The notes under the pieces: model-generated
What the model was told of the DNA's origin: nothing
Databases searched by the model: none
What the model saw: only the letters and a program-made list of their open reading frames with translations
Assembly (NCBI GenBank): GCA_048882505.1
Contig: JBHLRO010000001.1
Coordinates: forward strand, 240,001-272,000
Length of the DNA stretch: 32,000 nucleotides
Direction of reading: 5' to 3'
From: Candidatus Thorarchaeota archaeon
Lineage (GTDB): Archaea; Asgardarchaeota; Heimdallarchaeia; Hodarchaeales; Hodarchaeaceae
Position numbers and translations under genes: made by a program
Shown here: positions 2,309 to 30,348 of the stretch, piece by piece
How positions within the stretch are numbered: position 1 is the first letter of the stretch
Layout: every line of letters starts with the position of its first letter

Positions 2309-2331
2309 CTGTTTCTCCTCGGTTTCCGTAA

Positions 2332-3117: not shown

Positions 3118-3138
3118 GGTAAATCACTGTTTATTGGC

Positions 3139-3170: not shown

Positions 3171-3187
3171 TCTGTCTTAAACTTCGT

Positions 3188-4465: not shown

Positions 4466-4515
4466 TGTTATAACCTAAATTCGCTGATTAACAGTATATA
4501 GGCCCCTCAAGAAGT

Positions 4516-4566
4516 AAAAAAAGAGAAAACCTTCTTCGAGACCTAGAGTCTCTCCGAAGGGTTTCC
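4516..4566 (-). terminator. Hairpin plus U-tract after the solute-binding protein gene
   Basis: The minus strand reads GAAACC-CTTCG-GA-GAGAC-TCTAG-GTCTC-GAAG-AA-GGTTTTC followed by TCTTTTTTT, about 10 nt after the stop at 4577. Confidence 0.6.
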
Positions 4567-4576
4567 AAAGAAGGAT

Positions 4577-6187: not shown

Positions 6188-6219
6188 TAGAATATCTCCA
6201 AAAAGAGACCTAACATCTA

Positions 6220-6237
6220 AAAGAAGTTAACTTCTTT
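6220..6237. promoter_or_regulatory. Perfect 18-bp palindrome (putative operator) in the dppA/dppB divergent promoter
   Basis: AAAGAAGTTAACTTCTTT is its own reverse complement. It overlaps a TTTAAA TATA-like box (6235-6240) and lies 33-50 nt upstream of the dppA start. Confidence 0.55.
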
Positions 6238-6388
6238 AAAAGAGTTTCGAAGAATGTGTAAAAATATCTCTTTTTTTTGAATGTTATCGGAAAATGCATA
6301 ATAATATTCGAAAGTAATTTGCACCAATCGCAGAGACTTAATATTCTCTCGATGAACCCGATGCTAGAGAAACTAGGAGATTAATCAA

Positions 6389-7396: not shown

Positions 7397-7397
7397 A

Positions 7398-8303: not shown

Positions 8304-8307
8304 AATC

Positions 8308-9276
8308 ATGTCAGATCTCCTCTCAGTTAATGATCTAAGAACCAGATATTTCACGGCTTCAGGGACGGTAAAAGCCGTAGATAGGTGTTCAATTAAATTA
8401 CAGAGAGGAGAAACACTGGGAATAGCAGGGGAATCTGGGTGTGGTAAATCTACTTTTGCGATGTCGATTCTAAGGTTGATTCAACCCCCTCACAAAATAA
8501 TCGAGGGGTCGGTAATATACAAAGGAATCGATATACTTAAGTTGACCGAGAAGGAGTTCCGAAAAATCAGGTGGGAGGAGATTTCATTAGTTTTGCAACA
8601 ATCGATGAACGCCTTGAATCCGATGCTCAGGATTTCAGATCAAATGATTGAACCGCTCATGATAAAGAGGATTACCTCTAAGGAGTCAGCGGAAGTCAAA
8701 GCCAGGAAGCTGCTAGAACTTGTAGGAATTAAGCCGGATCGTATTAACAATTATCCCCACGAATTCAGCGGAGGAATGAAACAAAGAGCGTTAATAGCTT
8801 TGTCATTGATTGCTGATCCAGAAATCCTCATATTGGATGAACCAACAACTGCTCTTGATGTAGTAGTTCAACACATGATACTTAAACTCATTAACGATCT
8901 TAAGAATGAAATGGGGTTATCTGTTATTTGGATAACTCACGACCTAGCGGTTTTGGCTGAAGTGTGCGATACTATTGCAATAATGTACGCTGGAAGAATT
9001 ATGGAAACTGGCACGGCAGAAGAACTCATCCTAAATCCCCAACATCCCTATACAAAAGGTCTTCTCGCTTCTTTCCCGACCATTGACCAGGTAGACAAGG
9101 AATTAGTATCAATCCCAGGCAGTCCACCGAATCTAATCAATCCACCGAAAGGTTGCCCATTCCATCCCCGTTGTAGCTCTGCAACTGATCTTTGTAAAAG
9201 AGAGCGGCCGATAGGTGAGACACTTCCAGATCGCGTTGATGGATATATAGAATGCCATAATTGGAAGGAAATTTGA
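8308..9276 (+). CDS. dppD: Peptide ABC transporter ATP-binding protein (DppD/OppD)
   Basis: Walker A GESGCGKS, signature FSGGMKQR, Walker B 'LILDEPTTALD', H-loop ITHD, and a C-terminal 'GCPFHPRC...C...C' Fe-S/oligopeptide domain. Confidence 0.94.
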   Translation: MSDLLSVNDLRTRYFTASGTVKAVDRCSIKLQRGETLGIAGESGCGKSTFAMSILRLIQPPHKIIEGSVIYKGIDILKLTEKEFRKIRWEEISLVLQQSMNALNPMLRISDQMIEPLMIKRITSKESAEVKARKLLELVGIKPDRINNYPHEFSGGMKQRALIALSLIADPEILILDEPTTALDVVVQHMILKLINDLKNEMGLSVIWITHDLAVLAEVCDTIAIMYAGRIMETGTAEELILNPQHPYTKGLLASFPTIDQVDKELVSIPGSPPNLINPPKGCPFHPRCSSATDLCKRERPIGETLPDRVDGYIECHNWKEI

Positions 9277-9279
9277 GCT

Positions 9280-10308
9280 ATGGTTAATAATGCGTCAGAA
9301 ACTCCTATTGTGGAAGCTAAGAATTTAAAAAAGTGGTTTACCTTAAAAAAAGGAATAAGCTCAACCTTTGGCATGTCCCAGGAGATAAAAATCCGAGCGG
9401 TAGATGGAGTCGACTTGCAAGTCCTTGACGGAGAAGTTTTCGGGATTGTGGGAGAGAGCGGATGCGGGAAAACTACATTGGGGAAGTTGTTAATCCGTCT
9501 CCTTGAACCTACTGATGGCCTCCTCAGTTTTAGGGGAACAGAGATCACCCACCTTTCGATGAAAGAAATGAGGAAATTTAGGAGAGAAATGCAGATAATC
9601 TATCAGGATCCGTTTAGCAGCTTACCTGTAAGATTTAAGGTAAGTAGGATCCTAACGGAACCCTTTCAAATTCACAAATTAATTTCTAGCAAGGCTGATG
9701 GTATTGAAAGAGCTTCTGAATTGCTAGAAGATGTTGGTCTAGTACCAACCGATGTATTTCTGGAAAAGTATCCCAACGAACTTAGCGGGGGTCAGCGCCA
9801 AAGAGTGGGTATTGCGAGGGCTATCGCCCTGAAACCAAAGTTCATTCTAGCAGATGAACCTGTATCAATGCTTGACCTCTCGGTTAGGGCCGAAATTCTT
9901 AATTTGATTCTTAAATTGAAAAAGGATTATGGACTTACTTTACTCCTTATAACCCACGATTTAGCCAGTGCGCAATTCATGTGCAACAGGGTTGCCATTA
10001 TGTATGTAGGGAAGATTGTGGAAGTGGGATCTGGAGATGAAATATTCAGCAAACCTTACCATCCGTATACGATGCTGCTGAAAGCCGCCCTACCCACACT
10101 TGACCCACGAACTAAGCATCACCTTTCGCAGCTTCCAACAGAGGAGGAAATTGCTAATCCTATTGATCTCCCACCAGGTTGTAGATTCCATCCGCGATGT
10201 ATTTATGCGCAAGATTTTTGTAAACGCAACGAACCAGAACTAAGAACGTATTTAGATAGAGAGGTTGCATGCCATGCCATAGGCGATTGGCTGCAACCAG
10301 AGGACTAA
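9280..10308 (+). CDS. dppF: Peptide ABC transporter ATP-binding protein (DppF/OppF)
   Basis: Walker A GESGCGKT, 'YQDPFSSL', LSGGQRQR, 'ADEPVSMLD' and C-terminal 'GCRFHPRC...C...VACH'. Confidence 0.94.
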   Translation: MVNNASETPIVEAKNLKKWFTLKKGISSTFGMSQEIKIRAVDGVDLQVLDGEVFGIVGESGCGKTTLGKLLIRLLEPTDGLLSFRGTEITHLSMKEMRKFRREMQIIYQDPFSSLPVRFKVSRILTEPFQIHKLISSKADGIERASELLEDVGLVPTDVFLEKYPNELSGGQRQRVGIARAIALKPKFILADEPVSMLDLSVRAEILNLILKLKKDYGLTLLLITHDLASAQFMCNRVAIMYVGKIVEVGSGDEIFSKPYHPYTMLLKAALPTLDPRTKHHLSQLPTEEEIANPIDLPPGCRFHPRCIYAQDFCKRNEPELRTYLDREVACHAIGDWLQPED

Positions 10309-10332
10309 CATAGCTACATAGGAGAAGGAAAA

Positions 10333-10809
10333 ATGGCAGAACCATATGAAAGTCAGAAAATTCCTGATCACTGGAATTCGTCTCCAAAAAGGGCGGTGTT
10401 ATGTAGAATTGTTGCAATTTCGGGTCTCCGGTTAAAACAGAGAGACACTTGGTTAATGCATCCTAGAACCAGAACTTTCCCAAAATTCGAGATAGCTGAA
10501 ATGACAATTACTGATGAAGAGCTAGCAAACCCAGGTCATCAAATAAACTCCGTACTGTATATCGGATTTTTGGAGGTTCAGCAGGGTGGCGTAGTTATTG
10601 CAGGAGACTCTGTTTCTATTTCAGAAAAGGAAATTGGAGTTGTAGGTGGTTTCAGTGATATTCATGAACCGAATCACCTTAATATCATGGTGAAGGGGAA
10701 CCCGGATATAATAGGGAAGTATATTACTCCGTACTCGGACGCTTCGGTTGTAAAACTGGATTTTAATGTTGAAGACGAAGTAGTTTTCGGTAGACATGCC
10801 AAAAAATGA
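10333..10809 (+). CDS. DUF6917-like protein of unknown function
   Basis: 'E...TDE...PG..IN.V.YIGF.EV..GGV...GD.V.I....IG...GF...H.PNH.NI' pattern. I recognise this from memory as the DUF6917 family. Confidence 0.6.
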   Translation: MAEPYESQKIPDHWNSSPKRAVLCRIVAISGLRLKQRDTWLMHPRTRTFPKFEIAEMTITDEELANPGHQINSVLYIGFLEVQQGGVVIAGDSVSISEKEIGVVGGFSDIHEPNHLNIMVKGNPDIIGKYITPYSDASVVKLDFNVEDEVVFGRHAKK

Positions 10810-10835
10810 TCATAGATAGCGGATGATGAATAGAC

Positions 10836-11924
10836 GTGTATTCCATGCCGATTTACCTAAAAGGATCTCATTATAATATCGGATACGAGCATGGCCAACA
10901 ACTATCAGAAACCATCCTGATGACAGTCGTACCTTTTATTGAGGAAGATATGCAGGAGAGCGGTATTAGCATGAAAGAGGGGCTATCAATTGCCAAAAAG
11001 TATGAATTACTTATTTCTAAAGATTATCCAGAGGTTATGGAGGAAACGAAAGGATTGGCTGACGGAGCTGGAATCGATTTCAAAAAAGCGCTATTGATTC
11101 TTTTCTATTGGGAAGTTCATGATACGGTTGAACAAAGCATTCCAGAATGTTCCTCGTTTGTGGCCGCAGGAGATGCCACAGTAGGAGGGGAGCCTATTGC
11201 CAGCCAGAACTCTGATTGGCCAAAAAAAATGATTGGTAGAGGTATTCCAAACGTATTCCACGTTTCCCCAAATAGCGGATATAGCTTCATAGGTAGAGGA
11301 CTCGCGGGAAATCTGGGACGAACCTCTGTTATCGGTTTTAATGAAAAGGGTCTTGGTTTTGTAGGTTCTGGTATTAATCAATTAAACGAACCTGGATTCG
11401 GTTTCCCTCCGTTGATACTGACAAGAATAGGTTTGGAGCGGTGTAGTACAGTAGAAGAATTCCTGGGATTGGTAAAGAGTATTCCTAGATGGTCTCATGC
11501 TGGAGAAAATGTAGAGATTGTAGATAAACATGGTAATATGGCTCGAATTAGCTTTGGATCAAGTAAGACCTTCGTGGTGCAAACGAAAGACCATTTCCTT
11601 GTGTCAACGAATCATTTTCACAATCAGGAACTTAGACATCTAGGTCCGGAAACTAAGGAATCATATCCGTCTTCATATGAAAGATATGACCGGCTAATCG
11701 ACCTTTTAAAGGCAAACTACGGGAAAATTGATCTGGAAGTTGCAAAGCAAATCATGAGTGATCACAAACATGGGAATAGGCCACCCGATGGAGGGAGCTC
11801 GATCTGCCGACATGGGAGTAAGCAGGAAACCATGGGAAATATGATTTTCTTGCCAAATAAAAGAAAATTCTGGATGTCCCAGGGAACCCCGTGTGGAGGA
11901 GACTATTCCGAATTCAAACTTTAA
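10836..11924 (+). CDS. Peptidase C45 / AAT-family Ntn-hydrolase
   Basis: 'GS.Y.IGY.HG', autoprocessing nucleophile in 'E|CSSF', 'QNSDW', 'G.NE.GL', 'TNHF' and 'S..RY.RL'. The start may be the GTG at 10836 or the ATG at 10845. Confidence 0.85.
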   Translation: MYSMPIYLKGSHYNIGYEHGQQLSETILMTVVPFIEEDMQESGISMKEGLSIAKKYELLISKDYPEVMEETKGLADGAGIDFKKALLILFYWEVHDTVEQSIPECSSFVAAGDATVGGEPIASQNSDWPKKMIGRGIPNVFHVSPNSGYSFIGRGLAGNLGRTSVIGFNEKGLGFVGSGINQLNEPGFGFPPLILTRIGLERCSTVEEFLGLVKSIPRWSHAGENVEIVDKHGNMARISFGSSKTFVVQTKDHFLVSTNHFHNQELRHLGPETKESYPSSYERYDRLIDLLKANYGKIDLEVAKQIMSDHKHGNRPPDGGSSICRHGSKQETMGNMIFLPNKRKFWMSQGTPCGGDYSEFKL

Positions 11925-11982
11925 GCCACAATAATCTCCTTACGCTTCTTGGGATACGAATGCCTGCAGATCTTTTGCAGCT

Positions 11983-13062
11983 CTAACTTTTCCATACTAG
12001 ACTAAAGACTCTCAATAGATTACCTCCCATTACTTTTCCGACATCTGTTTTCGAAAATCCTCGCTTTTCTAGCAAATTTGCTATCTTTGGTATGTCCCCA
12101 ATGCTCTCGAATCCCTTTGGATAATGAAATGCTATTTTTTTCCCGCCTAGATCTTGACCACCCATCCAAATGGCATCATGCTTTTCCTGCGGCCAATTTT
12201 CTAATAAATCGGGACCGATCCCGACGTGGTTAATTCCCACTAGGCTGATTATATGTTCGATGTGACGTATCATATCATCAATACAAGCATCGTTGTTTTC
12301 AGAAAGGAACATTGGCAAGGAATGGATTCCTATATAGCCACCATTTTCGCCTAGCTGATTAATAATATTGTCATCCAGGTTGCGCGGATGGCGGCAAAGT
12401 GCCTTTACATTAGAGTTTGAGGCAATAATGGGTTGAGAAGAGAGTTCAAGGACGTCCATGCATCCTTTCTGCGATAGGTGAGAGATATCAATTACCATTC
12501 CAATTCTGTTCATTTCTTCAACTACCTTCACGCCAAAATCACTTAATCCTCCGTTTGTACGATCCATGCAGCTGTCAGAAATCTCATTTCTCAGGTTTGC
12601 GGTCAAATTCATCTTACGGATTCCCAACCTATAGAATGCTCTCAATAAAGCAAGATCCCTCTTTATGGGCTTTCCGCCCTGGAGACAAAGGACTATTCCA
12701 AGTTTATTACTTCGTTTTAACTCTTCAGCCTCTTTTATATTGGTTATGATAGTTATTTTTTCATTGCTTTCTGTTTCTTCTTGAAACATGTAATCTATTC
12801 CGTCTAGGGCTCTTTGAAGGTAATCAGGATTTGAAAGTATACTCTTGATTGGAAAGGTTGTAAACATCCGTGTTTCTCCTCCAACATGATCACAAATTAG
12901 ATCGATTCCGCCCTTTCTTAACGAGGGAAGATGTCGTCTCTCCATTACCCTTTTTTCGCCCTGACTTCGTCTTTCTGCAACATCAATAAGATAATCAGTG
13001 TGAGATAATGCTGTGAACCCGGTAAATCCAGTTATATCAGTATTATCATTTATGAGACTCAA
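11983..13062 (-). CDS. Membrane dipeptidase (peptidase M19, amidohydrolase superfamily) with altered metal ligands
   Basis: 'HTD', 'GGLS.FG..VV.EMNRIGMVIDISH', 'HPRN..D' and 'HVGIGPD'. TTG start with an AGGAG RBS. Confidence 0.88.
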   Translation of the reverse strand: MSLINDNTDITGFTGFTALSHTDYLIDVAERRSQGEKRVMERRHLPSLRKGGIDLICDHVGGETRMFTTFPIKSILSNPDYLQRALDGIDYMFQEETESNEKITIITNIKEAEELKRSNKLGIVLCLQGGKPIKRDLALLRAFYRLGIRKMNLTANLRNEISDSCMDRTNGGLSDFGVKVVEEMNRIGMVIDISHLSQKGCMDVLELSSQPIIASNSNVKALCRHPRNLDDNIINQLGENGGYIGIHSLPMFLSENNDACIDDMIRHIEHIISLVGINHVGIGPDLLENWPQEKHDAIWMGGQDLGGKKIAFHYPKGFESIGDIPKIANLLEKRGFSKTDVGKVMGGNLLRVFSLVWKS

Positions 13063-13110
13063 ATTTCTTAACTCCTAGTTTCATTATGGGATCAATCACA
13101 TCCAACAACA

Positions 13111-14460
13111 TCAAATGGCTAGTAGTTCAGCTAGAAGTGAAACATCATCACAATTGGTAATCGATTCGACAAAGGAAGAGATTTCATCTACTGTATCTTT
13201 GCTGGCTACTCTAGATGCCAGATTCTTGAACTTGGCCCTAGTTTCTTCAATACTCATCCTTCTCGGATTTCTTACTATTCCACTCTCGAACCTTTGACCG
13301 TTTTTCATTTTGATTTCAACCCTCGCTGCTAAACGATGATCTAAACCAAGGTCATCCAAATCAGGATCTATGACAATATCTACTCGTTCCGCAATTTTAC
13401 GAATCCTTTCATCATCAATCTTTTTATTAGAAAACTGTTCAATCCCAACCACTCCATCTTTAAGTTTAACAGCTATAGCATAAGGCAGACTCATCTGGGC
13501 AGAATGAATGTTATCGTAGGTCATACCCACATCGTTCTTTTGTGCACCTCGCGTTGTGTTAACAAAAACGGTTTCGACTGATTCGGCAGCAATGTCGTTT
13601 GTATCAGTAATATCTGATAATGCATCTATTACGGCATGAAAGCTCGTGCAATTGGGATATTTCTTTAGAGCCATTTTTTGCATTTCATAAACCAGACCGA
13701 GACTTTCCGTTATTTTATCGATTTGGGGATCAGAAGAATGAGCCGTACAAAATCCACCTTGTTTCGATTCCAGAATATCCCTATATCCAGTTACACCATT
13801 TCTAGCAAGAAATGCTGCCATTATTCCTCCTTGGGCGGCTCGGGCATTAACCAGCCGTTTTGCTATTGCTTTAAAACCAAAAGTCAGCAAACCTCCGACG
13901 TAAGGGCCTGTGATTCCAATCGCATTAGTGGTTTGATCAGAACTAAGTCCTAAGATTTTAGCGGATGCAGCAGCCGCTCCGAAGGTGGAACATATCGCCG
14001 TTCCGTTCCATCCATGTAATACCGACCAACCGAGCCCGTTTCGAATCCTAATCGACACCTCCTGACCTGCAACAACAGCCTCAAGAAATTGGGTGCCGCT
14101 TACGCCCCCAATATACTCTGCGGCTGCTAAGGCAGAACTTACGACTAATGCCCCGGGGTGAATTCCAGTAGGAAAGTAAGTATCATCGAATTCAAAGGAA
14201 TTGGTGGCATTTGTATTTGCAAAAACGGCATTTACACATGGTAGCTTGACTCCATGGCCCCAGAGGGTTGCTTCCTCCCTTCCACCCCATTCTTTCAGAA
14301 GTTTAGCGAGAGTTCTTGCCCATGGTAATGTTGAACCAAAGAGACCGCACCCAATCATATCAAGAACATTATACTTTGCGGCTTGGACATATTCGGACGG
14401 GATCTCCGCAAGTTCTAGGTTAACTACCCACTCAGCTAATTGCTCACTAGCTGTTTTCAT
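13111..14460 (-). CDS. MmgE/PrpD family protein (paralog 2)
   Basis: 'A...VLD.IGC...GS', 'N...FEFDDT.....HPG..VV..ALA.AE', 'GI...ARAAQGG..AA.LA..G.TG' and 'K.YP.C...H'. Confidence 0.9.
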   Translation of the reverse strand: MKTASEQLAEWVVNLELAEIPSEYVQAAKYNVLDMIGCGLFGSTLPWARTLAKLLKEWGGREEATLWGHGVKLPCVNAVFANTNATNSFEFDDTYFPTGIHPGALVVSSALAAAEYIGGVSGTQFLEAVVAGQEVSIRIRNGLGWSVLHGWNGTAICSTFGAAAASAKILGLSSDQTTNAIGITGPYVGGLLTFGFKAIAKRLVNARAAQGGIMAAFLARNGVTGYRDILESKQGGFCTAHSSDPQIDKITESLGLVYEMQKMALKKYPNCTSFHAVIDALSDITDTNDIAAESVETVFVNTTRGAQKNDVGMTYDNIHSAQMSLPYAIAVKLKDGVVGIEQFSNKKIDDERIRKIAERVDIVIDPDLDDLGLDHRLAARVEIKMKNGQRFESGIVRNPRRMSIEETRAKFKNLASRVASKDTVDEISSFVESITNCDDVSLLAELLAI

Positions 14461-14472
14461 GAAAAGATGCCT

Positions 14473-14805
14473 CTAATCCTCAGATTCAGGATCCACTTCT
14501 TCTTTCGTTATTTCAAAAACGACTGGACGAGCTGCATCTGGACATGCATGTTCTATAACGCCTTCATTAGCCCATGGATAATCAAATCCAGAGCGCATGG
14601 GGAGGATCTTATACATCATGGTAGCTAGAGCACTGTAACATATTGTACCTTCTATCTCTCCCTCTTTGAATGTAATCTTATCCCCAGGTCTATAATATCT
14701 GCAGGGACCTTTTCCTGCTGTATCCTCGCCATTAAGACCGTGAACGGACTTTACAGTTGCAACAATATTATAGGTTTTGTACGGGGTTTTTTCTTTTTTT
14801 TCCAT
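14473..14805 (-). CDS. TIGR04076-like small Cys-containing protein
   Basis: 'V..V.....G.C..Y..GD', 'IC..A' and 'CPD...PV.FEI', the three-Cys pattern of this family. Confidence 0.7.
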   Translation of the reverse strand: MEKKEKTPYKTYNIVATVKSVHGLNGEDTAGKGPCRYYRPGDKITFKEGEIEGTICYSALATMMYKILPMRSGFDYPWANEGVIEHACPDAARPVVFEITKEEVDPESED

Positions 14806-14842
14806 TGTGTCACCTCATTCAGTTTTTTGTAAGGATTTTGGA

Positions 14843-15679
14843 TCATTCCACCTTGTATACACAGGCTAGATGCCTAACACACTGTGGGCATTGACCGTTA
14901 CATTCTGGCAAGCTTCCTGGAAGGCCGCTAGTTTGGGCTCCTTTGATATCCATCAGAATGCGAAAGATTTTTTCAGTTTCATCTTCTGAACCCTCAACGA
15001 CCAGTGTGGTTGCACCCTCCGCGCCCTCAATCCCTCCGGACGCGATTACAGTAGCCTTAACATCCGCAAGGGATATAATCGCCTCTTTTTCAGTTACAAC
15101 CTCACCGATTAAAGGGATTAATCCAACCGCTGCACCCATGGATTTATGGATTGAAATCCGACCCGATGCTTGCACTGCCTCTTTTATCGTCCCAGGTATA
15201 AGCTTCTCTAAACCGACTGCGATTATAACTTTACAGCCCTGAGAGGAAAAACCTGCCATCGCTTTCCCTGGATTATGTCCTAAAGGTGCTGCGGCCATCA
15301 TTGCCACGTTTCCATGGCTATCCAAAGCGTTAGCGCCAACAATGATTATATCCTCAGCTTGAAGATTAGCGGTCACCTTCTCTATATCCTTATCAATGTC
15401 CATTATTTCGTTCTTCTCCAAAAGAACGCAGTGAGGATGTTTCTGTCTTTCTAGGGCATTCATTGTTCCCCTTGGGGAAATTCGTCCTCCAATTCTCAAC
15501 GATTGACCAGCTAGTTGTTCAGAAATTGTCGAAACAGTTGTTCCTCCCTTTAGTAGCACTTTACCGTTAGCAAGCGCATATTTTACATCAGCTCTGGAAA
15601 CAATTGCTCTTGCAATGACCTGCTTGGCCTCTGATACAGTTAAAGTTACCTGGACTTTCATACCTGGATTAACTCTCAA
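14843..15679 (-). CDS. Conserved hypothetical protein (RpiA/CoA-transferase-like alpha/beta core inferred) with a C-terminal C-x3-C-x2-C-x5-C tail
   Basis: 'LTVSEAK..IA.AI', 'GGTT', 'GANA.D..GN' and 'VGLEKLIP' motifs, ending in 'CNGQCPQCVRHLAC'. An alternative ATG start lies at 15661. Confidence 0.6.
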   Translation of the reverse strand: MRVNPGMKVQVTLTVSEAKQVIARAIVSRADVKYALANGKVLLKGGTTVSTISEQLAGQSLRIGGRISPRGTMNALERQKHPHCVLLEKNEIMDIDKDIEKVTANLQAEDIIIVGANALDSHGNVAMMAAAPLGHNPGKAMAGFSSQGCKVIIAVGLEKLIPGTIKEAVQASGRISIHKSMGAAVGLIPLIGEVVTEKEAIISLADVKATVIASGGIEGAEGATTLVVEGSEDETEKIFRILMDIKGAQTSGLPGSLPECNGQCPQCVRHLACVYKVE

Positions 15680-15686
15680 ATCTTAA

Positions 15687-16685
15687 TCATTTTATTGATC
15701 TAGATACCCTAGCAATAGTCAGAATGTTGTTACCTGGGTAGGCCACAGGAGAAGCTGGTACACCCAAAATTGTACCGTCCTGAGGAGCATGGACCTCATC
15801 TAGAATATTGCCAAACAGATCGGTTATAGAAACAATATGATCCCCCTTTTTAACTTCCAGATTCAATTTACACTTTTCAGTCGGAATTATTAATCCTCCA
15901 TATCTACATTTCACATTAGTTCCTTCCAAGATCCCCCATTCATTGGCATACTTTGCAGAACCTTCAAGCATACCTAAATGTCTCAGTACGTTTTTCAGCA
16001 TGGTTTTAAAGCTTCCAACGTTATTCATGAGAGAGCCCGGAAGCCTATTGCTCGAACCTCCTAACTCTGCAATCACACAGGGGATATTTTCCTTTTCACA
16101 AGATACCAAGAGTGTATTGGGATGGCCACTTTCGTGTAATAGTTTCCATTCAGGGCCCATCCCTCTGGCTAACTCCATTGATTTTGGATCGTTACTTATC
16201 ATAACACGGTTTGTAAGATAGAAGAGACCTCCGCCACCGTGAAGGGATATAACCGTATCCATTTTTTTGACAATCCGATTGAAGTATGTATAAACAATCC
16301 TTTGAGACACTGAACCATTCTTATCACCAGGAAATAACCGATTCATGTCATAATTATAACGCTCGTCCGGATTACCTCTTGTGCCCGCCTCATACGCCCT
16401 AATATTTAGAACAGGGATGCCTACGACTGTTCCCTTTAATTCCTCAGCCTTTAATTCACTCATGAATTCGACAACAGCCACGGCACCCTCAGTTTCATCA
16501 CCATGGCAGCAAGCTTCAACTAGCAGAAGTGGCCCTGTTTCGGTGCCAGATACTACTGTGACTGGAATGCCAAATGGGGAGCCATCGGATCGTGTTGTGA
16601 TTGGTAACCAACCAAATTTCTTGGTTCCTCTTAATTCAATAAAATTTTCAAAATTTGAGATTTCTTTCACGTTTTTCGGCTCCAT
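15687..16685 (-). CDS. Succinylglutamate desuccinylase/aspartoacylase family (M14-like) deacylase
   Basis: Zn ligands 'HGDE' and 'SLHGG', 'D.NR.FPG', catalytic 'ELGG', and a C-terminal barrel-sandwich 'AP.DG' motif. Confidence 0.9.
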   Translation of the reverse strand: MEPKNVKEISNFENFIELRGTKKFGWLPITTRSDGSPFGIPVTVVSGTETGPLLLVEACCHGDETEGAVAVVEFMSELKAEELKGTVVGIPVLNIRAYEAGTRGNPDERYNYDMNRLFPGDKNGSVSQRIVYTYFNRIVKKMDTVISLHGGGGLFYLTNRVMISNDPKSMELARGMGPEWKLLHESGHPNTLLVSCEKENIPCVIAELGGSSNRLPGSLMNNVGSFKTMLKNVLRHLGMLEGSAKYANEWGILEGTNVKCRYGGLIIPTEKCKLNLEVKKGDHIVSITDLFGNILDEVHAPQDGTILGVPASPVAYPGNNILTIARVSRSIK

Positions 16686-18124
16686 TCGGTAATAATCTCA
16701 ATCGTTCGGATCAAACCTCTAACTGCGATTTTTACTCTTTCGGTTATTATATTCCCGTTGTTATCCAAATTCCCTTGACCCATAACTATAAATACGTTTC
16801 CGTCGTAGGAAAGAGGGGGACGTATCCCCATATTCCCCAACCCTATCTGAATCAGATTACTCCCAGAGTACATGTCCTCAATACTAAAAATTGGTATTCC
16901 GATGACGTCATCCTTCCATGTATCAACGTAGTTAACCTCCACAGCCGCTCCATTATATGACTTTGAAATATGGATTCCTTCTTCCATAACACTACCAAAA
17001 CTTGAGAATTCATCTTTTACTACACGATATAGCTCGTCAATCTTTTTTCTCATATCATCGGGGTTTTCCCTTAGTTTCGTTAGCGCAGCTATTTGTCCAA
17101 CTAATCCTTCTTTACCAGGGTCTACAGCTACATAGGCAGTCTTTCCATAGGAAGATGCAGTTCCTCTCCTAGCGCCGTGAAAACCCATTGCCCTCCGAAT
17201 GGGAATCATAACATCTTCTTTGCCAATTACCAATCCACTCGTCGTGGCCTCTACTGCTTTGTCCATACTGTAAAGAATGACATCTGCATTGATTTTTCGA
17301 ATATCAGTTCCAATAAAGGGTAATCCCCTAGCATTGTCGCATATATATGGGATATTATAATCCCTAGCAAGATGGCTATAATATTTCATTAGTTTGGGGG
17401 TTCCTTCCCCATCTTTTATGTGATATCCATAACCTATTGTATCATATCCCATGGAGGTTATACCTGAGAGTTTGTCTCCATGAATTTCTGCAACAGCACG
17501 AATCCTTTCAATCGCCAAATCTGGATCGACTGTGGTTAGCATTGGTATGGCATTATATTTAATGCCATGAGCTTCATATCTTGCTCCTTCAAGAGGAACG
17601 ATTATTGTCTCAACATTCGACAACCTCTTCCCTTGAACTCCCAATTCACCAGCAGTTACTCCTCTATCAGCAAAAAGATCACGATATTTTGGCGGAAAAG
17701 GCCTACCATATCCCCCCTGATGGTGAAGATGTCGTTCGTAAGGTGCGACATATGCTGCCCGATAATTGTCACCTCTACCTTGCATGGGAGGAGATACAAG
17801 CGTGTCAAAGGCAACCCAAAGCGCCGCCTCTGCTGTACTCATCGATGCTGCGTCGTAATTGTCTCCGTAAACATCCTTAACGAGATCTCGTATTTGGTCA
17901 ACAAGTGAAGCAAGAGATATAACTTTTCTACTGGCATCTTGAATTGCTTTAAGGACCTCGGCTGGTACAGTTGGGGGAGTTGCAGAACCACCGCCCAATC
18001 CTATATTGCCTTTAAGATCATCCGTTAATCCGATGTTTTCGGCTTCTTTTCTTATTTCAGAAAGTATTTCAAGAGTGTGCTTCTCAAGTCTTTGATACAT
18101 TCTGAACCTATGAGGTTGGGGCAT
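16667..18124 (-). CDS. Fold-type I PLP-dependent enzyme, SelA-like, uncharacterised
   Basis: 'ICDNARG' (DxA pyridine-binding motif) and 'YSMDKA' (Schiff-base Lys, like SelA-type S-x-D-K). Start moved from 18148 to the ATG at 18124 (AGGTG RBS). Confidence 0.65.
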   Translation of the reverse strand: MPQPHRFRMYQRLEKHTLEILSEIRKEAENIGLTDDLKGNIGLGGGSATPPTVPAEVLKAIQDASRKVISLASLVDQIRDLVKDVYGDNYDAASMSTAEAALWVAFDTLVSPPMQGRGDNYRAAYVAPYERHLHHQGGYGRPFPPKYRDLFADRGVTAGELGVQGKRLSNVETIIVPLEGARYEAHGIKYNAIPMLTTVDPDLAIERIRAVAEIHGDKLSGITSMGYDTIGYGYHIKDGEGTPKLMKYYSHLARDYNIPYICDNARGLPFIGTDIRKINADVILYSMDKAVEATTSGLVIGKEDVMIPIRRAMGFHGARRGTASSYGKTAYVAVDPGKEGLVGQIAALTKLRENPDDMRKKIDELYRVVKDEFSSFGSVMEEGIHISKSYNGAAVEVNYVDTWKDDVIGIPIFSIEDMYSGSNLIQIGLGNMGIRPPLSYDGNVFIVMGQGNLDNNGNIITERVKIAVRGLIRTIEIITEWSRKT

Positions 18125-18147
18125 ACACCTTCTGACTAAACTCGACA

Positions 18148-18157
18148 TTTATATATA
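18148..18157 (-). promoter_or_regulatory. TATA box of the leftward operon (18124 to 11983)
   Basis: The minus strand reads TATATATAAA 24-33 nt upstream of the ATG at 18124, within a roughly 110-bp divergent intergenic region. Confidence 0.5.
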
Positions 18158-20510: not shown

Positions 20511-20921
20511 GTGATAAATATGAAATACGAAAGCAACTTCATCAAACCCAAAGTCAGCGAGGAAATTCCCCATCATGATAGCGCCGAAATGGAAAAAATC
20601 GGAGCCAATATGGTTTTACTTGACGATTCGTTGTTTTCCGGGGCAGGAGTCCGGATGACAACCAGGATTGTCCGAGGAGTGGTCGATGAACCAGAGGAGT
20701 ATGTAGAACTTCATACTCACGAAGTTGATCAAGTTTTCATCTATTTTGGCGAAGCTGACAATGAAAATTCATTAGAAGTGGAATTCAGATTTGAAGAAGA
20801 AGTTTATCGTATCAAATCCCCAACAACAGTATTTGTACCTAAAGGTGTTCCACACACTCAGAAGATCATTCGCGGGTCAGGGAGATATATTACACTTCTC
20901 AAAAAGGGAAAATATATCTAA
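20511..20921 (+). CDS. Cupin-domain protein
   Basis: 'HTHEVDQVFIYFG' and 'VFVPKGVPH' cupin motifs 1 and 2. Confidence 0.75.
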   Translation: MINMKYESNFIKPKVSEEIPHHDSAEMEKIGANMVLLDDSLFSGAGVRMTTRIVRGVVDEPEEYVELHTHEVDQVFIYFGEADNENSLEVEFRFEEEVYRIKSPTTVFVPKGVPHTQKIIRGSGRYITLLKKGKYI

Positions 20922-23767: not shown

Positions 23768-24919
23768 TTATGAGGGTCCCGTTACGAAGAATGTAAGCTC
23801 CCCAGAACAAAATAAGCATACCGATACACCCTGTGTCTCCATAGTTGTGAAACAGGCTTCACAGATTGCACGAAAGCAGTTAGTACACTTATAGTGAGCC
23901 GAAGAAATCGAAATATTACCTTCATGTAGTTCGCAAACGATAGTGCTCGAGCCGAGAACTAATTTATCATCAGAGAGATCCCGGAGAGTGCCAGAGTTCT
24001 CTAGAAATCCGTTTATCGATTGTTGAGCAATCAACCGGACAACAATATCATTAATTAGCTCGATGGGAAGGTGTGTAAGTTTGGACAGTCTAGAAAGGCC
24101 AATTTCGTTTTTACCCTCCACATCGTAAAGAGTTGTAATTGTACTAAGGACAATGGATTCATTCTTGTCTATCGCGCGTTCACGCTTTCTGAAGGTCCAA
24201 TATCTCTTAGTCCTTTCTTTTATCGAAGAGAAAGACATATCCTTACCATATTCCTTGATATCTTTGAAAACCTGGGAAGAAACCTTCCTTAATCCAATAG
24301 CAGATAGATTTGCTTTCTGATTCTGGTAATAATCCGTTAAAGAGGATCGAACATTCTTTGACTGAAGTTCTAGCGGCTCCAAATCTTTTTGCTTGAATAT
24401 TCGTGGTACAGGAATTAAGCTGCTGCGACAAAAAGGACATTCGGCCAATTCCCCTTTCTGGTAGCATGCGGCACAAATGAATCGTAAACAGCGCTCACAT
24501 TGGAAATGCAATTCAAAAACAGAATGATCTGTTTGATCAACCTGGCAAAAATAGGTGTCTTGACGCAAGACCAAAGTATCGTCTTTAATAAAACCTTCGA
24601 TAAGACGAGTTTCAATAAACTCTTGAAGGATGAAACGAATATCGGCCTCCGGGAGATCTGCTTCTAGAGCCAGTTCAGGAATCGAAATATTTTCTCCAGA
24701 ATGGATTGAATTTAGCTTATTAAGAGCAAGGAATGTCCGTTTGATAGGATGAGAAGATAATCTGTACTCCTTATCGAAAGTCTGAAACTGATCGACTTCT
24801 CGTTGTACCATTTTACGAAAAGAGGCTTTTAATCTCTCAGTGTAACCCTGATTTTGGCCAGACATTTTTAACATCAATAACCGATATTTATAATCTGGTT
24901 TAGTTAGGAATAGCGCCAT
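23768..24919 (-). CDS. Tandem (PCI-type winged helix + C4C4 RING-like zinc finger) x2 protein
   Basis: Two internal repeats. Each has 'I.(I/L)..L.....LP...I..I....I....I.GF' followed by C-x2-[D/H]-x12-C-x2-C-x4-C-x2-C-x8/11-C-x2-C. Confidence 0.7.
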   Translation of the reverse strand: MALFLTKPDYKYRLLMLKMSGQNQGYTERLKASFRKMVQREVDQFQTFDKEYRLSSHPIKRTFLALNKLNSIHSGENISIPELALEADLPEADIRFILQEFIETRLIEGFIKDDTLVLRQDTYFCQVDQTDHSVFELHFQCERCLRFICAACYQKGELAECPFCRSSLIPVPRIFKQKDLEPLELQSKNVRSSLTDYYQNQKANLSAIGLRKVSSQVFKDIKEYGKDMSFSSIKERTKRYWTFRKRERAIDKNESIVLSTITTLYDVEGKNEIGLSRLSKLTHLPIELINDIVVRLIAQQSINGFLENSGTLRDLSDDKLVLGSSTIVCELHEGNISISSAHYKCTNCFRAICEACFTTMETQGVSVCLFCSGELTFFVTGPS

Positions 24920-25589: not shown

Positions 25590-27668
25590 GTGTTAAATGA
25601 GGTAACTCCAATCTTGGATAATAGGAATAAAATTGGATGGTTCCAAAGAAAGGATCTAAAACCTCCCAAAGACCTTAAATCAGTATTTAAATCACTCAGA
25701 AATTATTTGGCCGGAAACCTAAAAGGCACAACTAGAGATGAAAGATTAGCAGAACAGTTGATTTTCCTTCTCTTCTGTAAAATACAGGATGAGATACAGA
25801 CAAAACAAGAAGAACCAGTTTTATTCCAATTACATCATCCTTCCAATATTACACTTGATGAAAGGGTGAAAAAACTCTTTGTTCACCTTAAAGATGCATT
25901 TCCAATCGCATTCGATGAGAAAGATAAAATTAATATCGATTCTTATAGTTTAATGCATTTAACCAAGGTATTGCAGCCCTTCAGCATTAGTGAGGCCAGT
26001 AGAGACTCAATCGGGGATGCCTTTGAGATTTTTTTGGGGCCTTCTCTACGAGGAAACAAAGGTCAGTTCTTCACCCCCAAGAATGTTGTAAAAACAATGG
26101 TTTCGATTTTAGACCCCAAACCAGGAGAATCAGTCATAGATCCCGCCTGTGGAACGGGAGGTTTCTTAATAGAAGTTATCAAACATCTTAAGGACGAAAA
26201 TAACAAAAAACCTACATCCTTACCTCCCATCGCCAATATTTACGGAATTGACAAAGATAGGTTCTTGGCAAAGATAGCCCGGCTTTATTTGATGATCCTT
26301 GGGGCGGATTACAATCCCATTTTCTGTGAAAACTCCTTAACAGATCCAAAAAGTTGGGGGCTCGAATTATCATCGAAAATAAAGCAAAACTCGTTTGATA
26401 TCGTAATAACAAATCCCCCTTTCGGATCGAAAATTTCAATAAAAAACCAGGAAATTCTCAATTCTTTTGAATTAGGTCATAGGTGGCAAAAATCTAAGGA
26501 TAAGGAATCTGGGACAATTAGATGGACGAAAACAGCATCGTTGCTCGATTCGCGACCTCCTCAAATACTTTTCATAGAATTAGCGCTTTCCTTACTCAAA
26601 GATGACGGCCGGTTGGGGATTGTTCTTCCGGATGGGATTTTTGGGAATCCAACTGATAGATACATTTTGGAATATCTACAGACACATTCTAAAATCCTAG
26701 GAATAATTAGTTGTTCTGCATTAACTTTTCTTCCCTTTACACACACCAAAACTAGTTTATTATTCCTCCAGAAAAAGAAAAAAGCCGAACCATACGATTT
26801 ATTTATGGCAATCGCGGATAACGTTGGCCATGACAAGAATGGCAAACCCTCATATAAATTGGATGCCTTTGGAAACGTTTTAGAAGATAATAATGGATTT
26901 TCAATTCTTAATGACGATTTCCCTGAAATTATAAGGCGGTTCAACTTGTTTACCAAAGTTAAAAGCCTTAACCATTCTCATCTTGGTTTCTCTTTTCCCT
27001 CTACCTCTCTCCGAAATAATATATTGATTCCCGAATATTATAATCCAGAAATCGATATAGAGTTATCAGAATTGGAGCGAACAGGTGATTACAAGCTAAT
27101 CACAATTGAAAGATTAGTGCTGGAAGGAATAATCGAAATACGGCGTGGTCATGAAATCGGATCAAAATTCTACGGAACCGGAGACATTCCCTTTGTGAGA
27201 ACCTCTGATCTGATAAATTGGGAAATCAATATTGATCCCAAGAAACAGGTATCAGAGGAGATTTATATGCAATACAAACAAAAACAGGACATTCGGGAAG
27301 GAGACATATTGTTCATTAGTGATGGAACCTTCCTTATTGGCAAATCTGCTATGATTACCAAAGAAGATACCAAAATAATAATTCAAAGCCATTTGAAAAA
27401 AATTCGGGCTATTAAGAGGAACTTTTTGGACGAGTACATTTTACTCTGGGCCTTGAACACCGAAATAGTGCAGAAACAGGTTAAATCAAAGACCTTTGTC
27501 CAATCAACAATATCTACCTTGGGAGAACGGATGTTTGAGCTGATACTGCCGATACCAAAGGCTCCCCAACGCCGTGACGAACTCTCACGTGAAATTAAGA
27601 CCATTATCGAACAGAAAATGAAACTCAGAGCTCGAATCCGGGCATCTCTGAATATTTCTAAGGTTTAA
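25590..27668 (+). CDS. N-6 adenine DNA methyltransferase (HsdM/type IIG-like, gamma class) fused to one HsdS-like target-recognition domain
   Basis: 'GQFFTP..VV', 'DPACGTGGFL' (SAM binding) and 'NPPF' (catalytic). The C-terminal 'IPFVRTSD...DILF...G..IGK.A..' region is TRD-like. Confidence 0.9.
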   Translation: MLNEVTPILDNRNKIGWFQRKDLKPPKDLKSVFKSLRNYLAGNLKGTTRDERLAEQLIFLLFCKIQDEIQTKQEEPVLFQLHHPSNITLDERVKKLFVHLKDAFPIAFDEKDKINIDSYSLMHLTKVLQPFSISEASRDSIGDAFEIFLGPSLRGNKGQFFTPKNVVKTMVSILDPKPGESVIDPACGTGGFLIEVIKHLKDENNKKPTSLPPIANIYGIDKDRFLAKIARLYLMILGADYNPIFCENSLTDPKSWGLELSSKIKQNSFDIVITNPPFGSKISIKNQEILNSFELGHRWQKSKDKESGTIRWTKTASLLDSRPPQILFIELALSLLKDDGRLGIVLPDGIFGNPTDRYILEYLQTHSKILGIISCSALTFLPFTHTKTSLLFLQKKKKAEPYDLFMAIADNVGHDKNGKPSYKLDAFGNVLEDNNGFSILNDDFPEIIRRFNLFTKVKSLNHSHLGFSFPSTSLRNNILIPEYYNPEIDIELSELERTGDYKLITIERLVLEGIIEIRRGHEIGSKFYGTGDIPFVRTSDLINWEINIDPKKQVSEEIYMQYKQKQDIREGDILFISDGTFLIGKSAMITKEDTKIIIQSHLKKIRAIKRNFLDEYILLWALNTEIVQKQVKSKTFVQSTISTLGERMFELILPIPKAPQRRDELSREIKTIIEQKMKLRARIRASLNISKV

Positions 27669-27715
27669 CTAAGTAGATCAATTCAGGAAGCGTTTTATTT
27701 GGGCAAGGACTTATA

Positions 27716-28339
27716 TCAATATTCGATTTTATCCACTGCTGTTTTTAAAAGAGCATAGCCTGAAGTATGTAGAGCATGGCCATGTGCGACTATTACTTTA
27801 GAAAATTGGTAATCAAGTAATTTTTTCATTGAAATACGGTGCAGCTTTGGATTTTCATTATATTGATCTGGCATAGGAGCTATTTCCCCTTCATTGGTCA
27901 TAAAACTATCTCCTGCTACTAACAACCCTGTCTCTTGATCTAATAAAGCAATATGGCCTTTCGTGTGTCCTGGAGTGTGGATAACAAGCAATCCTTGGTA
28001 AACCTGTTGAGTCTTTAGTTGATGATCTATTTTCACTCCCGTATCCTGTTTTATTCGCTTGGTTTCCAATTCATGACAAGCTATCTGAGCCATGGTTATT
28101 TCTTTCATTCTCTCTAATCCGCCCGTATGATCTCGATGATAATGTGTGATAATTATATTTGCTATGTCTTTTTCATGATAACCACAGGCCTTTATTTCAG
28201 AAATTAGATTTTTCGCAGTTGGGTCCGTTGCAGTATCAACAAGAACTAGACGAGAGGACGTTAATAGTGCGGTATGGCTCGTTGTTTCTAGTACAAAGGC
28301 ATCTGATCCAATTTTTATCAGCTTCAAACCAACTCCCAT
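27716..28339 (-). CDS. MBL-fold metallo-hydrolase
   Basis: 'THYHRDHTGG' (HxHxDH), 'TPGHTKGH', 'GD' and 'AHG'. Confidence 0.9.
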   Translation of the reverse strand: MGVGLKLIKIGSDAFVLETTSHTALLTSSRLVLVDTATDPTAKNLISEIKACGYHEKDIANIIITHYHRDHTGGLERMKEITMAQIACHELETKRIKQDTGVKIDHQLKTQQVYQGLLVIHTPGHTKGHIALLDQETGLLVAGDSFMTNEGEIAPMPDQYNENPKLHRISMKKLLDYQFSKVIVAHGHALHTSGYALLKTAVDKIEY

Positions 28340-28421
28340 TTTATGTGGACTGGGATATTTCCAAGAAATAAACTTCTATGGGCAGATTACTTCCTTACTT
28401 ATAGGTTTTGCCTATCACCTT

Positions 28422-28435
28422 CAATAGCGCTATTG
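28422..28435. promoter_or_regulatory. Perfect 14-bp palindrome upstream of the MBL gene
   Basis: CAATAGCGCTATTG, next to an ATAGG-TTTTG-CCTAT hairpin (28401-28415). Confidence 0.25.
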
Positions 28436-28468
28436 TTTATTGTGAAAAGAGTCTTAGCCAAATCAATT

Positions 28469-29284
28469 TTAGCGATCAAGGTACCTCACTAATCCTTCGT
28501 CACGTTGGGACGAAGGTTCTAAGTTTCTTAAGTGAATTCGATAATCCTTGACATTCTTTAGCTTACGCAGGCAGATTTCTCGATATTTGGAATCTATTTC
28601 AATTCCAACATAATCCCTTGCCATAAGTTTAGCGACAACGGCCACAGTTCCAACCCCCATAAACGGATCAAAGACAAGATCTCCTTTTTTTGATGCCATT
28701 GCTATAATGCGTTCGATCATTGCCATAGGAAGCTGACATGGATGGGGATCTCGATCCCTACGATGTCTGATTCGATGCAAATCAAACCATAGATCAGAAA
28801 TCTCGTTGGGTTGAACCGCTAAATCATTCTCTCTCTTCCGAATACACGAATTTCGTAAACAAAAAGTATCCTTTGCCTTGGTTAGAATCCTATTGAAGGT
28901 ATAATCAAGTGACTTCGTGTAATAGAGTAAACCATAATGTGCTGGCATGATTTTCCCACGAGGAACAGATAATGCATCCCAAACAATCCAACGCTGCCTG
29001 TACATTAATTGATCAAGGAAGATCGCATAGTACATACACCATTTCGGTAAATTAACCACAAAAATAGAACCCGTTGGCTTCAATATGCGATACAATTGGT
29101 ATAGCCATCTGTTACACCACTTAACATAATCATCTTCGTGTAAATCATCACGATAAGATGTGTACGCTTTATTTAAATTGTAGGGAGGGTCTGTAATGAC
29201 CAAATCTACGCTGTCAGATTTAAATTTGGGCAAAAGTTCTATACAGTCGTCCTGATATATTCGATTACGCTCTATAGCGAGCAT
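28469..29284 (-). CDS. Site-specific DNA methyltransferase, N6_N4 beta class (intact)
   Basis: N-terminal 'DLVITDPPYN' (motif IV), 'HPCQLP...ERII..AS..GDLVFDPFMGVGT' (motif I) and 'YVGIEID'. The ATG at 29284 follows an AGGTGAT RBS. Confidence 0.92.
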   Translation of the reverse strand: MLAIERNRIYQDDCIELLPKFKSDSVDLVITDPPYNLNKAYTSYRDDLHEDDYVKWCNRWLYQLYRILKPTGSIFVVNLPKWCMYYAIFLDQLMYRQRWIVWDALSVPRGKIMPAHYGLLYYTKSLDYTFNRILTKAKDTFCLRNSCIRKRENDLAVQPNEISDLWFDLHRIRHRRDRDPHPCQLPMAMIERIIAMASKKGDLVFDPFMGVGTVAVVAKLMARDYVGIEIDSKYREICLRKLKNVKDYRIHLRNLEPSSQRDEGLVRYLDR

Positions 29285-30170
29285 GAAGATCACCTGGGAA
29301 TGGAGTCAGTAATAGTTTAGAATCGGTATCGCAAGATAAATTTATCAGACGAGCTAGAAGCTGATCAGAAAACACCCCTGATGGGCTAGAAATATACTTC
29401 CATACGTCTGAAATTATAGCCCCGTTATGGTGAATGAGGTGTTTCTTGCCTCCATAATCTTTGATATTTCGGCCACAATATTCACACCGAAATGTTTCGC
29501 GTATACGGTTAATACGAAATCCTTTGTCAGTTTTGAGATAAAAAAGGGTTCCATTGGTCACTGAAGACAGACGTTTTAATACATCATCGTCATGATCAGG
29601 AGGGAGGATTTCGGCTTTACTTACCAACCAATACTTAAAATGCATAAACTTGTCCAGATATACTCCATAATATGGAAGTAGTTCTGGAGTAGAATGGATA
29701 AGGTAATTGCCCCTCTCATTTAAGATTCTGGTTACCTCTTTGATCCATTCTTTATGTGATTCAATCACATAGGATCGATCCGGGTTAGTTTTATACGGCT
29801 TATTTCTGATTCTTGGATCATAGGGAAAGAATGAAATACACGTATCGATAGAGTGTGATGGAAGCTTTTTAAGTTTAGGTAGGTTATTGCAAATCACAAT
29901 TGATTCTGGGATGATATTTTCAATGACAGAATCTGGTTGAATACGTTTTTTAAGAAATTCCTGTTTTACTGATTCATAATCTTGAATATTATATACGTTC
30001 AATACTTCGGATAATTTAAAATATCCTGTTTCTTGCAGAGGATTTGAAAGTTTATTCCCATCTCTATCATACTTGTTAATTAGGCCCGCTGCAATTTTGA
30101 GACGAATGTTTTCCTCTGTTCGATTGGTGATTCGAAACACGTCGGTCAATTTCAGAAATGTTTCTTTCAT
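29265..30170 (-). CDS. HTH (MerR/excisionase-like)-fused degenerate beta-class DNA methyltransferase
   Basis: N-terminal 'FLKLTDVFRIT......IR..I..G.I...YF..SEV' HTH. 'KKLPSHSIDTCISFFPY' aligns to 'SIDLI.TDPPY', followed by 'WIKEV.RIL...G', 'CEYCG', 'ISDVW' and a truncated 'LLTPFPG'. The ATG at 30170 follows a GAGGTGG RBS. Confidence 0.7.
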   Translation of the reverse strand: MKETFLKLTDVFRITNRTEENIRLKIAAGLINKYDRDGNKLSNPLQETGYFKLSEVLNVYNIQDYESVKQEFLKKRIQPDSVIENIIPESIVICNNLPKLKKLPSHSIDTCISFFPYDPRIRNKPYKTNPDRSYVIESHKEWIKEVTRILNERGNYLIHSTPELLPYYGVYLDKFMHFKYWLVSKAEILPPDHDDDVLKRLSSVTNGTLFYLKTDKGFRINRIRETFRCEYCGRNIKDYGGKKHLIHHNGAIISDVWKYISSPSGVFSDQLLARLINLSCDTDSKLLLTPFPGDLHARYRA

Positions 30171-30348
30171 GGAACCACCTCTACAATACTCATTTGGGAG
30201 AGGCATTTAACACAGTAAAAATCTCTCTTCTTATGATCCAAAGAATTAAACTGTGGCTTTAATAGATTGGCGGAAGATAATCTTGGGGGATTTGGATATA
30301 GAAATTCTTAATTGTTGATTTAAGAATCAATTTTTAGAGGTTAATTGG

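Follow-up and report, generated by a model that had tools for sequence, protein, structure and literature searches.

The window analysed here is a 32,000-nucleotide (nt) stretch (C1:240001-272000) of the 4.3-Mb, 94.6% complete genome of a Hodarchaeales archaeon deposited as Candidatus Thorarchaeota. At positions 23768-24919, its complementary strand encodes a protein, P0001, that is very probably composed of two tandem modules, each a PCI-type winged helix followed by an eight-ligand RING-like zinc finger. P0001 is a plausible protein of the ubiquitin-ligase type because a larger relative, P0132, lies in the ubiquitin operon of the same genome. Judging from the sequences, we see about an even chance that P0001 serves the ubiquitin-like system of this archaeon as a RING-type E3 ligase or as an adaptor for one. 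It is a soluble protein of ~42 kDa found in one Hodarchaeales family.

Each module of P0001 begins with a lead-in helix, continues with an acidic winged helix of the PCI/UFL1 type, and runs straight from the wing into the finger. The two halves are homologous, with residues 75-168 aligning to residues 269-375 at 31% identity (E 1e-13, internal alignment). All parts are encoded on the complementary strand. Basic helices (residues 19-74, net charge +5; 24698-24865) form the N-terminal region, and the second of them packs on winged helix 1 in the AlphaFold2 (AF2) models. Winged helix 1 (residues 75-120; 24560-24697) is of the PCI type according to its module model and to structure comparison with VIA-align (VIA), and it is acidic (net -7). 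Finger 1 (residues 121-171; 24407-24559) has its ligands arranged as C125-x2-D128-x12-C141-x2-C144-x4-C149-x2-C152-x8-C161-P-F-C164. A basic linker (residues 172-250, net +10; 24170-24406), delimited by homolog alignment and the AF2 model, follows and has a low predicted local distance difference test score (pLDDT). The second module comprises a long helix with winged helix 2 (residues 251-322; 23954-24169), which holds the best Pfam PCI stretch (260-306), and finger 2 (residues 323-378; 23786-23953), with ligands arranged as C329-x2-H332-x12-C345-x2-C348-x4-C353-x2-C356-x11-C368-L-F-C371. A preliminary description of this gene had quoted two PCI-like winged-helix strings, two cysteine patterns, and a basic helical linker. 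The strings occur at residues 78-111 and 273-306, the patterns have exactly the spacing given there (C125-C164 and C329-C371), and the linker is the one at residues 172-250.

Conservation among homologs extends over fingers and linker and, together with the internal repeat, exceeds chance by far. Sequence search found 41 homologs of P0001 at 46-96% identity, and those bearing an organism name are from Heimdall-, Hod-, or Promethearchaeota. In 22 aligned homologs, all 16 candidate ligand positions are invariant or ≥90% conserved. The motif PVPRIFK (residues 170-176), which comes after finger 1 and spans its boundary with the linker, is nearly invariant, and several linker residues are also conserved (Y197/Y198, G209, S214, D220, and R244-K245-x-E247). 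Whole-protein comparison of P0001 with the PDB by phmmer gave only a chance match to L30, and an NCBIfam scan gave nothing meaningful. The ESM Atlas yielded no usable feature match, and its shape search returned generic winged helix-turn-helix (wHTH) and TFE rows (TM ≤0.53). Literature searches found no description of this protein family. Because the AF2 model of the full-length protein was mediocre (pLDDT 67.6, with <50 for linker residues 174-226), module 1 was modelled separately (residues 56-176, from a 68-row module alignment, A4), which gave a pLDDT of 92 and a pTM of 0.75.

In canonical RINGs, the hydrophobic residue between ligands 1 and 2, the proline in the last knuckle, and the aromatic residue after ligand 6 are E2-contact positions. 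A profile search of 1.84 billion representatives returned 89 proteins. Most of these share the ~50-residue finger alone, usually at the C-terminus, or one module of winged helix plus finger, and all that are named belong to Heimdall- or Hodarchaeales. In a set of 123 non-redundant fingers (A3), seven cysteines are invariant, and R146 is kept in 116. The ligand-2 column, three residues after the first Cys, contains Asp in 71 fingers, His in 29, Cys in 21, and another residue in two. It is almost exclusively D, H, or C and is therefore taken as a metal ligand, with D128 and H332 as the eighth ligands of the P0001 fingers. Ile, Leu, Val, or Met stands between ligands 1 and 2 in 119/123 fingers, Tyr or Phe follows ligand 6 in 98/123, and Pro occupies the last knuckle in 84/123. 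Finger 1 of P0001 has all three RING-typical positions (V127, Y153, and P162). Finger 2 keeps L331 and F357, and Leu replaces the last-knuckle Pro; in the family this knuckle reads C-[LIVM]-[FY]-C. The aromatic residue noted after the third CxxC pair in the preliminary description is thus present in both fingers.

A profile of A3 was searched against PDB sequences, and the best 60 matches were mostly RING fingers, followed by FYVE fingers. The strongest was the cellulose-synthase RING 1weo (E 7.6e-5, positions 6-54, with the Asp column on Cys2). Other matches were TRIM32 (E 1.1e-3), TRAF3 (E 1.8e-3), NOT4 (E 4.9e-3), RNF4 (E about 7e-3), aS34 (E 8e-3), MAT1 and BRE1 (E 0.011 each), RING2 (E 0.016), and p44 (E about 0.02). 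Likeness to the RINGs of CNOT4 and p44 had been proposed beforehand; both are among the matches, but the C4C4 RING of cellulose synthase is the best one. With the eukaryotic C4C4 RINGs (1weo/Pfam zf-UDP, CNOT4 1e4u, and TFIIH p44), the P0001 fingers share eight ligands, the spacing C3-x2-C4-x4-C5-x2-C6, an aromatic residue after ligand 6, and an in-register, full-length profile alignment. They differ in having Asp or His as ligand 2, in their fusion to a winged helix, and in their duplication, and no Pfam model of those families scores over its cut-off on them.

In the layout described for RING-like binuclear treble clefs, the C-terminal strand starts right behind the last ligand (PMC4506424). 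In the model of finger 1, a strand ending at C125, a hairpin, a strand ending at C141, and a turn with C144 form the first part, and a strand ending at C149, a helix with C152, a loop, C161-x2-C164, and a strand at residues 167-171 form the second. As modelled, the order of elements matches that of RING-like binuclear treble clefs, the position of the last ligand included, and we infer that the P0001 fingers may coordinate zinc in a cross-brace (ligands 1, 2, 5, and 6 on one zinc and 3, 4, 7, and 8 on the other). Foldseek aligned module 1 with RING1B over 58 columns (rmsd, root-mean-square deviation, 2.5; 26% identity) and with aS34 over 56 columns (rmsd 2.2), and VIA gave aS34 a Z of 7.0 over 60. 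Matches to the winged helix took up the VIA lists, which therefore say little about the finger beyond aS34. aS34 is a two-zinc, seven-Cys protein of the ribosome, restricted to Thermoprotei and likened by its authors to RING E3 domains (PMC11698992). Among solved structures it matches the finger best (Saccharolobus 30S, PDB 9fhl chain a), and like the finger it has seven Cys and one other ligand. It differs as a stand-alone protein of 72 residues with no winged helix.

PCI-type winged helices occur in CSN2, the Rpn proteins of the proteasome lid, eIF3, and PCID2/TREX-2. The Pfam PCI model (PF01399) matches P0001 at 28.2 bits (cut-off 22) in two stretches, the best at 260-306, and covers the winged-helix half of the profile (positions 29-73 of 84). 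The helical-repeat half was not found in the AF2 models, where each winged helix has only one or two helices ahead of it. On this modelling, P0001 is a carrier of the PCI-type winged helix and not of a full bipartite PCI domain, so the PCI assignment made earlier holds for one half of the domain.

The module 1 model was compared by VIA with 48,161 PDB representatives and with the Foldseek top 1000. The best matches were UFL1/DDRGK1 (8b9x_B, Z 10.1, rmsd 1.4 Å over 62 residues), DDRGK1 (8c0d_E, Z 10.0, 1.3 Å over 59), and CSN2 (9efq_B, 26% identity, Z 9.6, 1.9 Å over 61). TREX-2 (Z 8.6-9.1, about 2.0 Å), the proteasome lid (Z 8.8-9.0, 1.8-2.2 Å), PCID2 (Z 8.2, 1.4 Å over 57 residues), and eIF3 (Z 8.0-8.5, 2.1-2.4 Å) followed. 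P0001 shares both the fold and the acidic surface of these PCI-type and UFL1/DDRGK1 winged helices, and it differs from them in the missing helical-repeat half and in the wing that runs into a finger. The UFL1 family model PF09743, too, has no match on P0001 at E up to 10, nor on P0132, and the likeness of P0001 to UFL1 is confined to the fold of the winged helix. The Asgard "E3" marker of Hatano et al. (2022) is the UFL1 InterPro entry (PMC9192718). Genome-wide, the only PF09743 match is a marginal one (20.4 bits, 24.2 with neighbours) on an 807-amino acid (aa) open reading frame (ORF) at C13:53314-53763 (L115), a locus different from that of P0132. Two further PCI observations concern the surroundings of P0001 and of one ortholog. 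A 787-aa ORF at C1:277543-277722, 5.5 kb past the window end, has a Pfam PCI match over cut-off (28.8 bits), and a 771-aa protein with a faint PCI match is encoded near a P0001 ortholog (L010:403-2718).

Winged helices could also serve in gene regulation, and P0001 might be a winged-helix transcription regulator with zinc sensor or dimerisation domains that controls a downstream acetyl-CoA cluster. In ~11/16 informative ortholog loci, the P0001 ortholog lies directly upstream of this cluster on the same strand. One ortholog carries the JGI label "predicted transc...", and there are weak structural matches to MarR, Fur, and TFE. We nevertheless regard regulation as improbable. Winged helix 1 is strongly acidic (net -7 in P0001, family median -8), including its "recognition" helix (-3, family median -4), and winged helix 2 has a family median of -3 (its "recognition" helix -1, family median 0). 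Judged by charge, the surface of these domains does not appear to be of the DNA-binding kind. PCI-type domains are the best structural matches, and generic DNA-binding wHTH proteins rank lower (Z from ~8.4 downward). The zinc sites of TFE and Fur have four ligands, whereas the P0001 fingers have eight. The link to the acetyl-CoA cluster is broken in the window, in a 96%-identical relative (G061), and in a further locus (L012), and the upstream AP_endonuc_2 gene is equally conserved, as expected of plain synteny.

A winged helix directly before a RING-type finger is also found in eukaryotic Nse1, a kite subunit of SMC5/6 with a C-terminal RING. The statement in the preliminary description that the two modules normally occur in separate proteins was therefore too strong; P0132 has the same tandem core as well. 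Nse1 is the top Foldseek match of the module (7dg2_A, E 6.7e-3, probability 0.99, 139 columns) and was also seen for the full-length model, which raises the idea that P0001 is an Nse1-like kite subunit of an SMC complex, with winged helices and a RING. With an rmsd of 11.9 Å, that match points to a different relative orientation of the domains. The winged helices of P0001 are ~150 residues apart and each has its own finger, unlike the contiguous tandem pair of a kite core. The loci examined contain no SMC or kleisin gene, and archaeal kites were without RING in a survey of SMC proteins (bioRxiv 10.1101/2024.01.07.573240). We consider a kite role very improbable.

Ubiquitin-system genes are present in the genome, as had been supposed for an Asgard archaeon. 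There are four UQ_con matches (counted as three catalytic E2s plus one UEV-like protein), three ubiquitin-fold matches, and E1 and JAB genes. A genome devoid of ubiquitin, E1, and E2 genes, which the preliminary description named as counter-evidence, is thus not the case here. Three E2 sequences were read; two keep the catalytic Cys, and the third, of 247 aa, is UEV-like and without it. This UEV-like protein (L004:1432-2175; C11:37231) keeps HPN, has a long extra C-terminal region, and looks to be of the UEV/Vps23 type. On contig C18 (L034:961-10092), the genes run in the order JAB, E2, an unknown 263-aa gene, a ubiquitin-like protein (Ubl), E1 (ThiF), a 116-aa zinc ribbon, P0132, Band_7, and EAP30, the last being ESCRT-II-like.

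P0132 (588 aa) has a PCI match and two fingers of the P0001 type, and both of its modules align with those of P0001 in the same order (25% identity over 285 aa, E 5e-14). Its finger 1 likewise starts C-Q-x-D and has the x8 loop, its finger 2 has the same x11 loop, and its Pfam PCI match lies on winged helix 2, as in P0001. P0132 differs in ~340 extra N-terminal residues, in an extra zinc ribbon between the fingers, and in a finger 2 that starts C-x2-C. It is also encoded in the ubiquitin operon, whereas the P0001 orthologs never are. The JAB-E2-Ubl-E1 operon with a P0132-type protein (P0056 and P0119) recurs on two unrelated metagenomic contigs (L083 and L084). A maximum-likelihood tree was built from 45 modules, and in it the first modules of the short (P0001) and long (P0132) families fall into one clade with support of 94/99. 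Within this complete E1/E2/Ubl/JAB operon, P0132 takes the position in which one would look for an E3.

If P0001 works as such a ligase or adaptor, finger 1 would recruit the charged E2. This finger keeps the hydrophobic residue between ligands 1 and 2, the aromatic residue that follows ligand 6, and the C-P-x-C knuckle. Binding of a substrate or partner, or pairing with finger 1, would fall to the winged helices, the basic linker, and finger 2, which is more degenerate. A complex prediction of finger 1 plus two Zn with the operon E2 scored 0.00 in a single combination run without controls, which speaks neither for nor against binding.

Several results weigh against a ligase. All Pfam RING models fall below cut-off on P0001 (Prok-RING_2 at 16.2 against 22.4 bits); the sub-threshold matches are zf-C2HC5 (2.6e-3), Prok-RING_2 (0.012), and Prok-RING_4 (0.03), and the same three recur among 78 remote relatives. 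Foldseek gave no PDB match at E ≤1e-3 for the full-length or the module model. An hhalign comparison of A3 with 27 Pfam-positive zf-RING_2 domains from the same genus (A6) aligned 7 columns at a probability of 38%, with no full-length alignment. In the module tree, the second modules of the two families do not come together. No ubiquitin gene lies beside P0001 or its orthologs in the 18 loci examined, where the neighbours are metabolic and transport genes. Among solved proteins, the best match by sequence is the RING of cellulose synthase, for which an E3 role is not established, and the best structural match of the finger is a ribosomal protein.

These last three points also speak for a different role, in which P0001 is a non-catalytic zinc-finger scaffold or adaptor that mediates protein contacts or oligomerisation, or docks on a ribonucleoprotein such as the ribosome, with its linker on RNA. 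Oligomerisation or protein contacts have been suggested as the function of the cellulose-synthase RING. Scaffold domains are the best matches of the winged helix, and UFL1/DDRGK1 also dock on the ribosome, as does aS34. The charges of the linker (+10) and the N-terminal helices (+5) fit such a role as well. Scaffolding alone leaves the family-wide RING-typical hydrophobic and Pro positions unexplained, and the closest paralog, P0132, sits at the place expected of an E3 in a complete operon. We regard a scaffold as possible but somewhat unlikely.

Fingers that do match the Pfam zf-RING_2 model were also observed, at two to eight per genome of the group (L085-L114; C30:751 and C14:83286 in the present genome). 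The 28 translated matches read C-x2-C-x12-C-P-x-C-x4-H-x2-H-x3-W-x6-C-P-x-C (C4H2C2). The spacing C3-x2-C4-x4-L5-x2-L6, where L is a ligand, is common to these fingers and the P0001 type.

The distribution of P0001 across genomes is narrow, and this was one of the checks suggested in the preliminary description. Full-length orthologs are confined to one family- and genus-level group of Hodarchaeales, where 18/22 genomes have them; none occur in other families of the class, and one weak partial match (E 2.6e-6) was found outside the family. The finger profile finds 4-15 copies in every one of 16 genomes from that group, and it matches two of 234 other sampled genomes of the phylum. The present genome has about 16 fingers of the P0001 type in all. 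Some are fused to a WD40 propeller (705 aa), to TPR arrays (434 and 125 aa), to an LVIVD-repeat protein (852 aa), or to double zinc ribbons (loci L082:1078-3192, L021:1384-2688, L081:506-3061, and L080:1114-2778). Fusions to WD40, TPR, and LVIVD resemble the usual build of RING E3s.

A bolder and rather speculative view, for which we hold out little likelihood, is that P0001 joins two RINGs in one chain on PCI-type winged helices, finger 1 being the "active" one and finger 2 the degenerate one, by analogy with heterodimeric RING pairs (RING1B-BMI1 and BRCA1-BARD1) or with winged helix-RING cores (cullin WHB-Rbx1 and Nse1). Along with its 4-15 sister fingers per genome, which are joined to WD40, TPR, and other scaffolds, P0001 might then be the record of an independent, lineage-specific radiation of RING E3s in the archaea closest to eukaryotes.

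Homologs help to locate the start of the gene. The longest ORF (23768-24919, complementary strand, stop included) encodes 383 aa. Nearly all homologs (~360-381 aa) start at the aligned MS... position, which is M19 of P0001, and the ESM Atlas record begins at residue 19. A TATA-like box, TTATAAAT, was read at 24886-24893 on the same strand, ~25 nt upstream of the ATG of M19. Because of these homolog starts and this box, the true coding sequence is probably 23768-24865 on the complementary strand, encoding 365 aa with a computed isoelectric point of 6.4 and a mass of 41.8 kDa. The position of the box suggests a leaderless or short-leader mRNA. An Rfam scan of the whole window gave no match.

Gene neighbourhoods are largely shared among the orthologs. 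Most loci have a divergent AP_endonuc_2 gene, sometimes an ABC transporter, the winged helix-RING gene, an AcetylCoA_hydro-GNAT gene, an ADP-forming acyl-CoA synthetase, and a DRTGG protein. The layout is different in the window and in G061, where the downstream side consists of MFS, M20, a 136-aa ORF, and M24, and where a methyltransferase/MBL block of ~5 kb lies between the P0001 gene and AP_endonuc_2. Because both flanks are conserved, we read the neighbourhood as synteny within one genus-level group and not as an operon. Gene neighbourhood was set aside as functional evidence for the same reason, since both flanks are equally conserved. The acetyl-CoA cluster itself (L009:9227-14458; also L010, L011, L013, L071, L073-L075, and L078) consists of the three genes downstream of most orthologs, an AcetylCoA_hydro/transferase-GNAT acetyltransferase fusion, an ADP-forming acyl-CoA synthetase, and a DRTGG/AAA_26 protein. 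The copy of the present genome is elsewhere (C4:241868, 40% identity).

The rest of the window contains metabolic genes and a probable island. At positions 25590-30206, genes for an N6 DNA methylase (692 aa), two N4/N6 methylases, and an MBL-fold protein form a block that G061 shares and that is probably an inserted island of the restriction-modification type. GC content falls to 0.37-0.38 from ~24000 onward. Positions 971-18148 form an amino-acid and peptide utilisation region with two MmgE/PrpD genes, aspartate dehydrogenase, a class-III aminotransferase, an SBP_bac_5 peptide-binding protein, several further ORFs in a row, two of them with a match to an ABC ATPase, an M19-family dipeptidase, an AAT-family acyltransferase, and an AsnC regulator. 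No Pfam family was found for a 493-aa ORF at 16667-18148 (complementary strand) or for the 136-aa ORF at 20511-20921 (forward strand), which is 93% conserved in G061.

Asgard ubiquitin systems are known, and their ligases are poorly defined. If the P0001 family is active, Hodarchaeales would hold more than the one operon-encoded E3, that is, a small radiation of RING-type ligases with an Asp- or His-containing C4C4-like finger, among them one that consists of a duplicated winged helix-RING unit. P0001 would then be a tractable 42-kDa soluble test case for a pre-eukaryote origin of E3 diversity and of winged helix-RING cores. If the family is inactive, it would be a clean archaeal example of the RING-like fold used as a scaffold.

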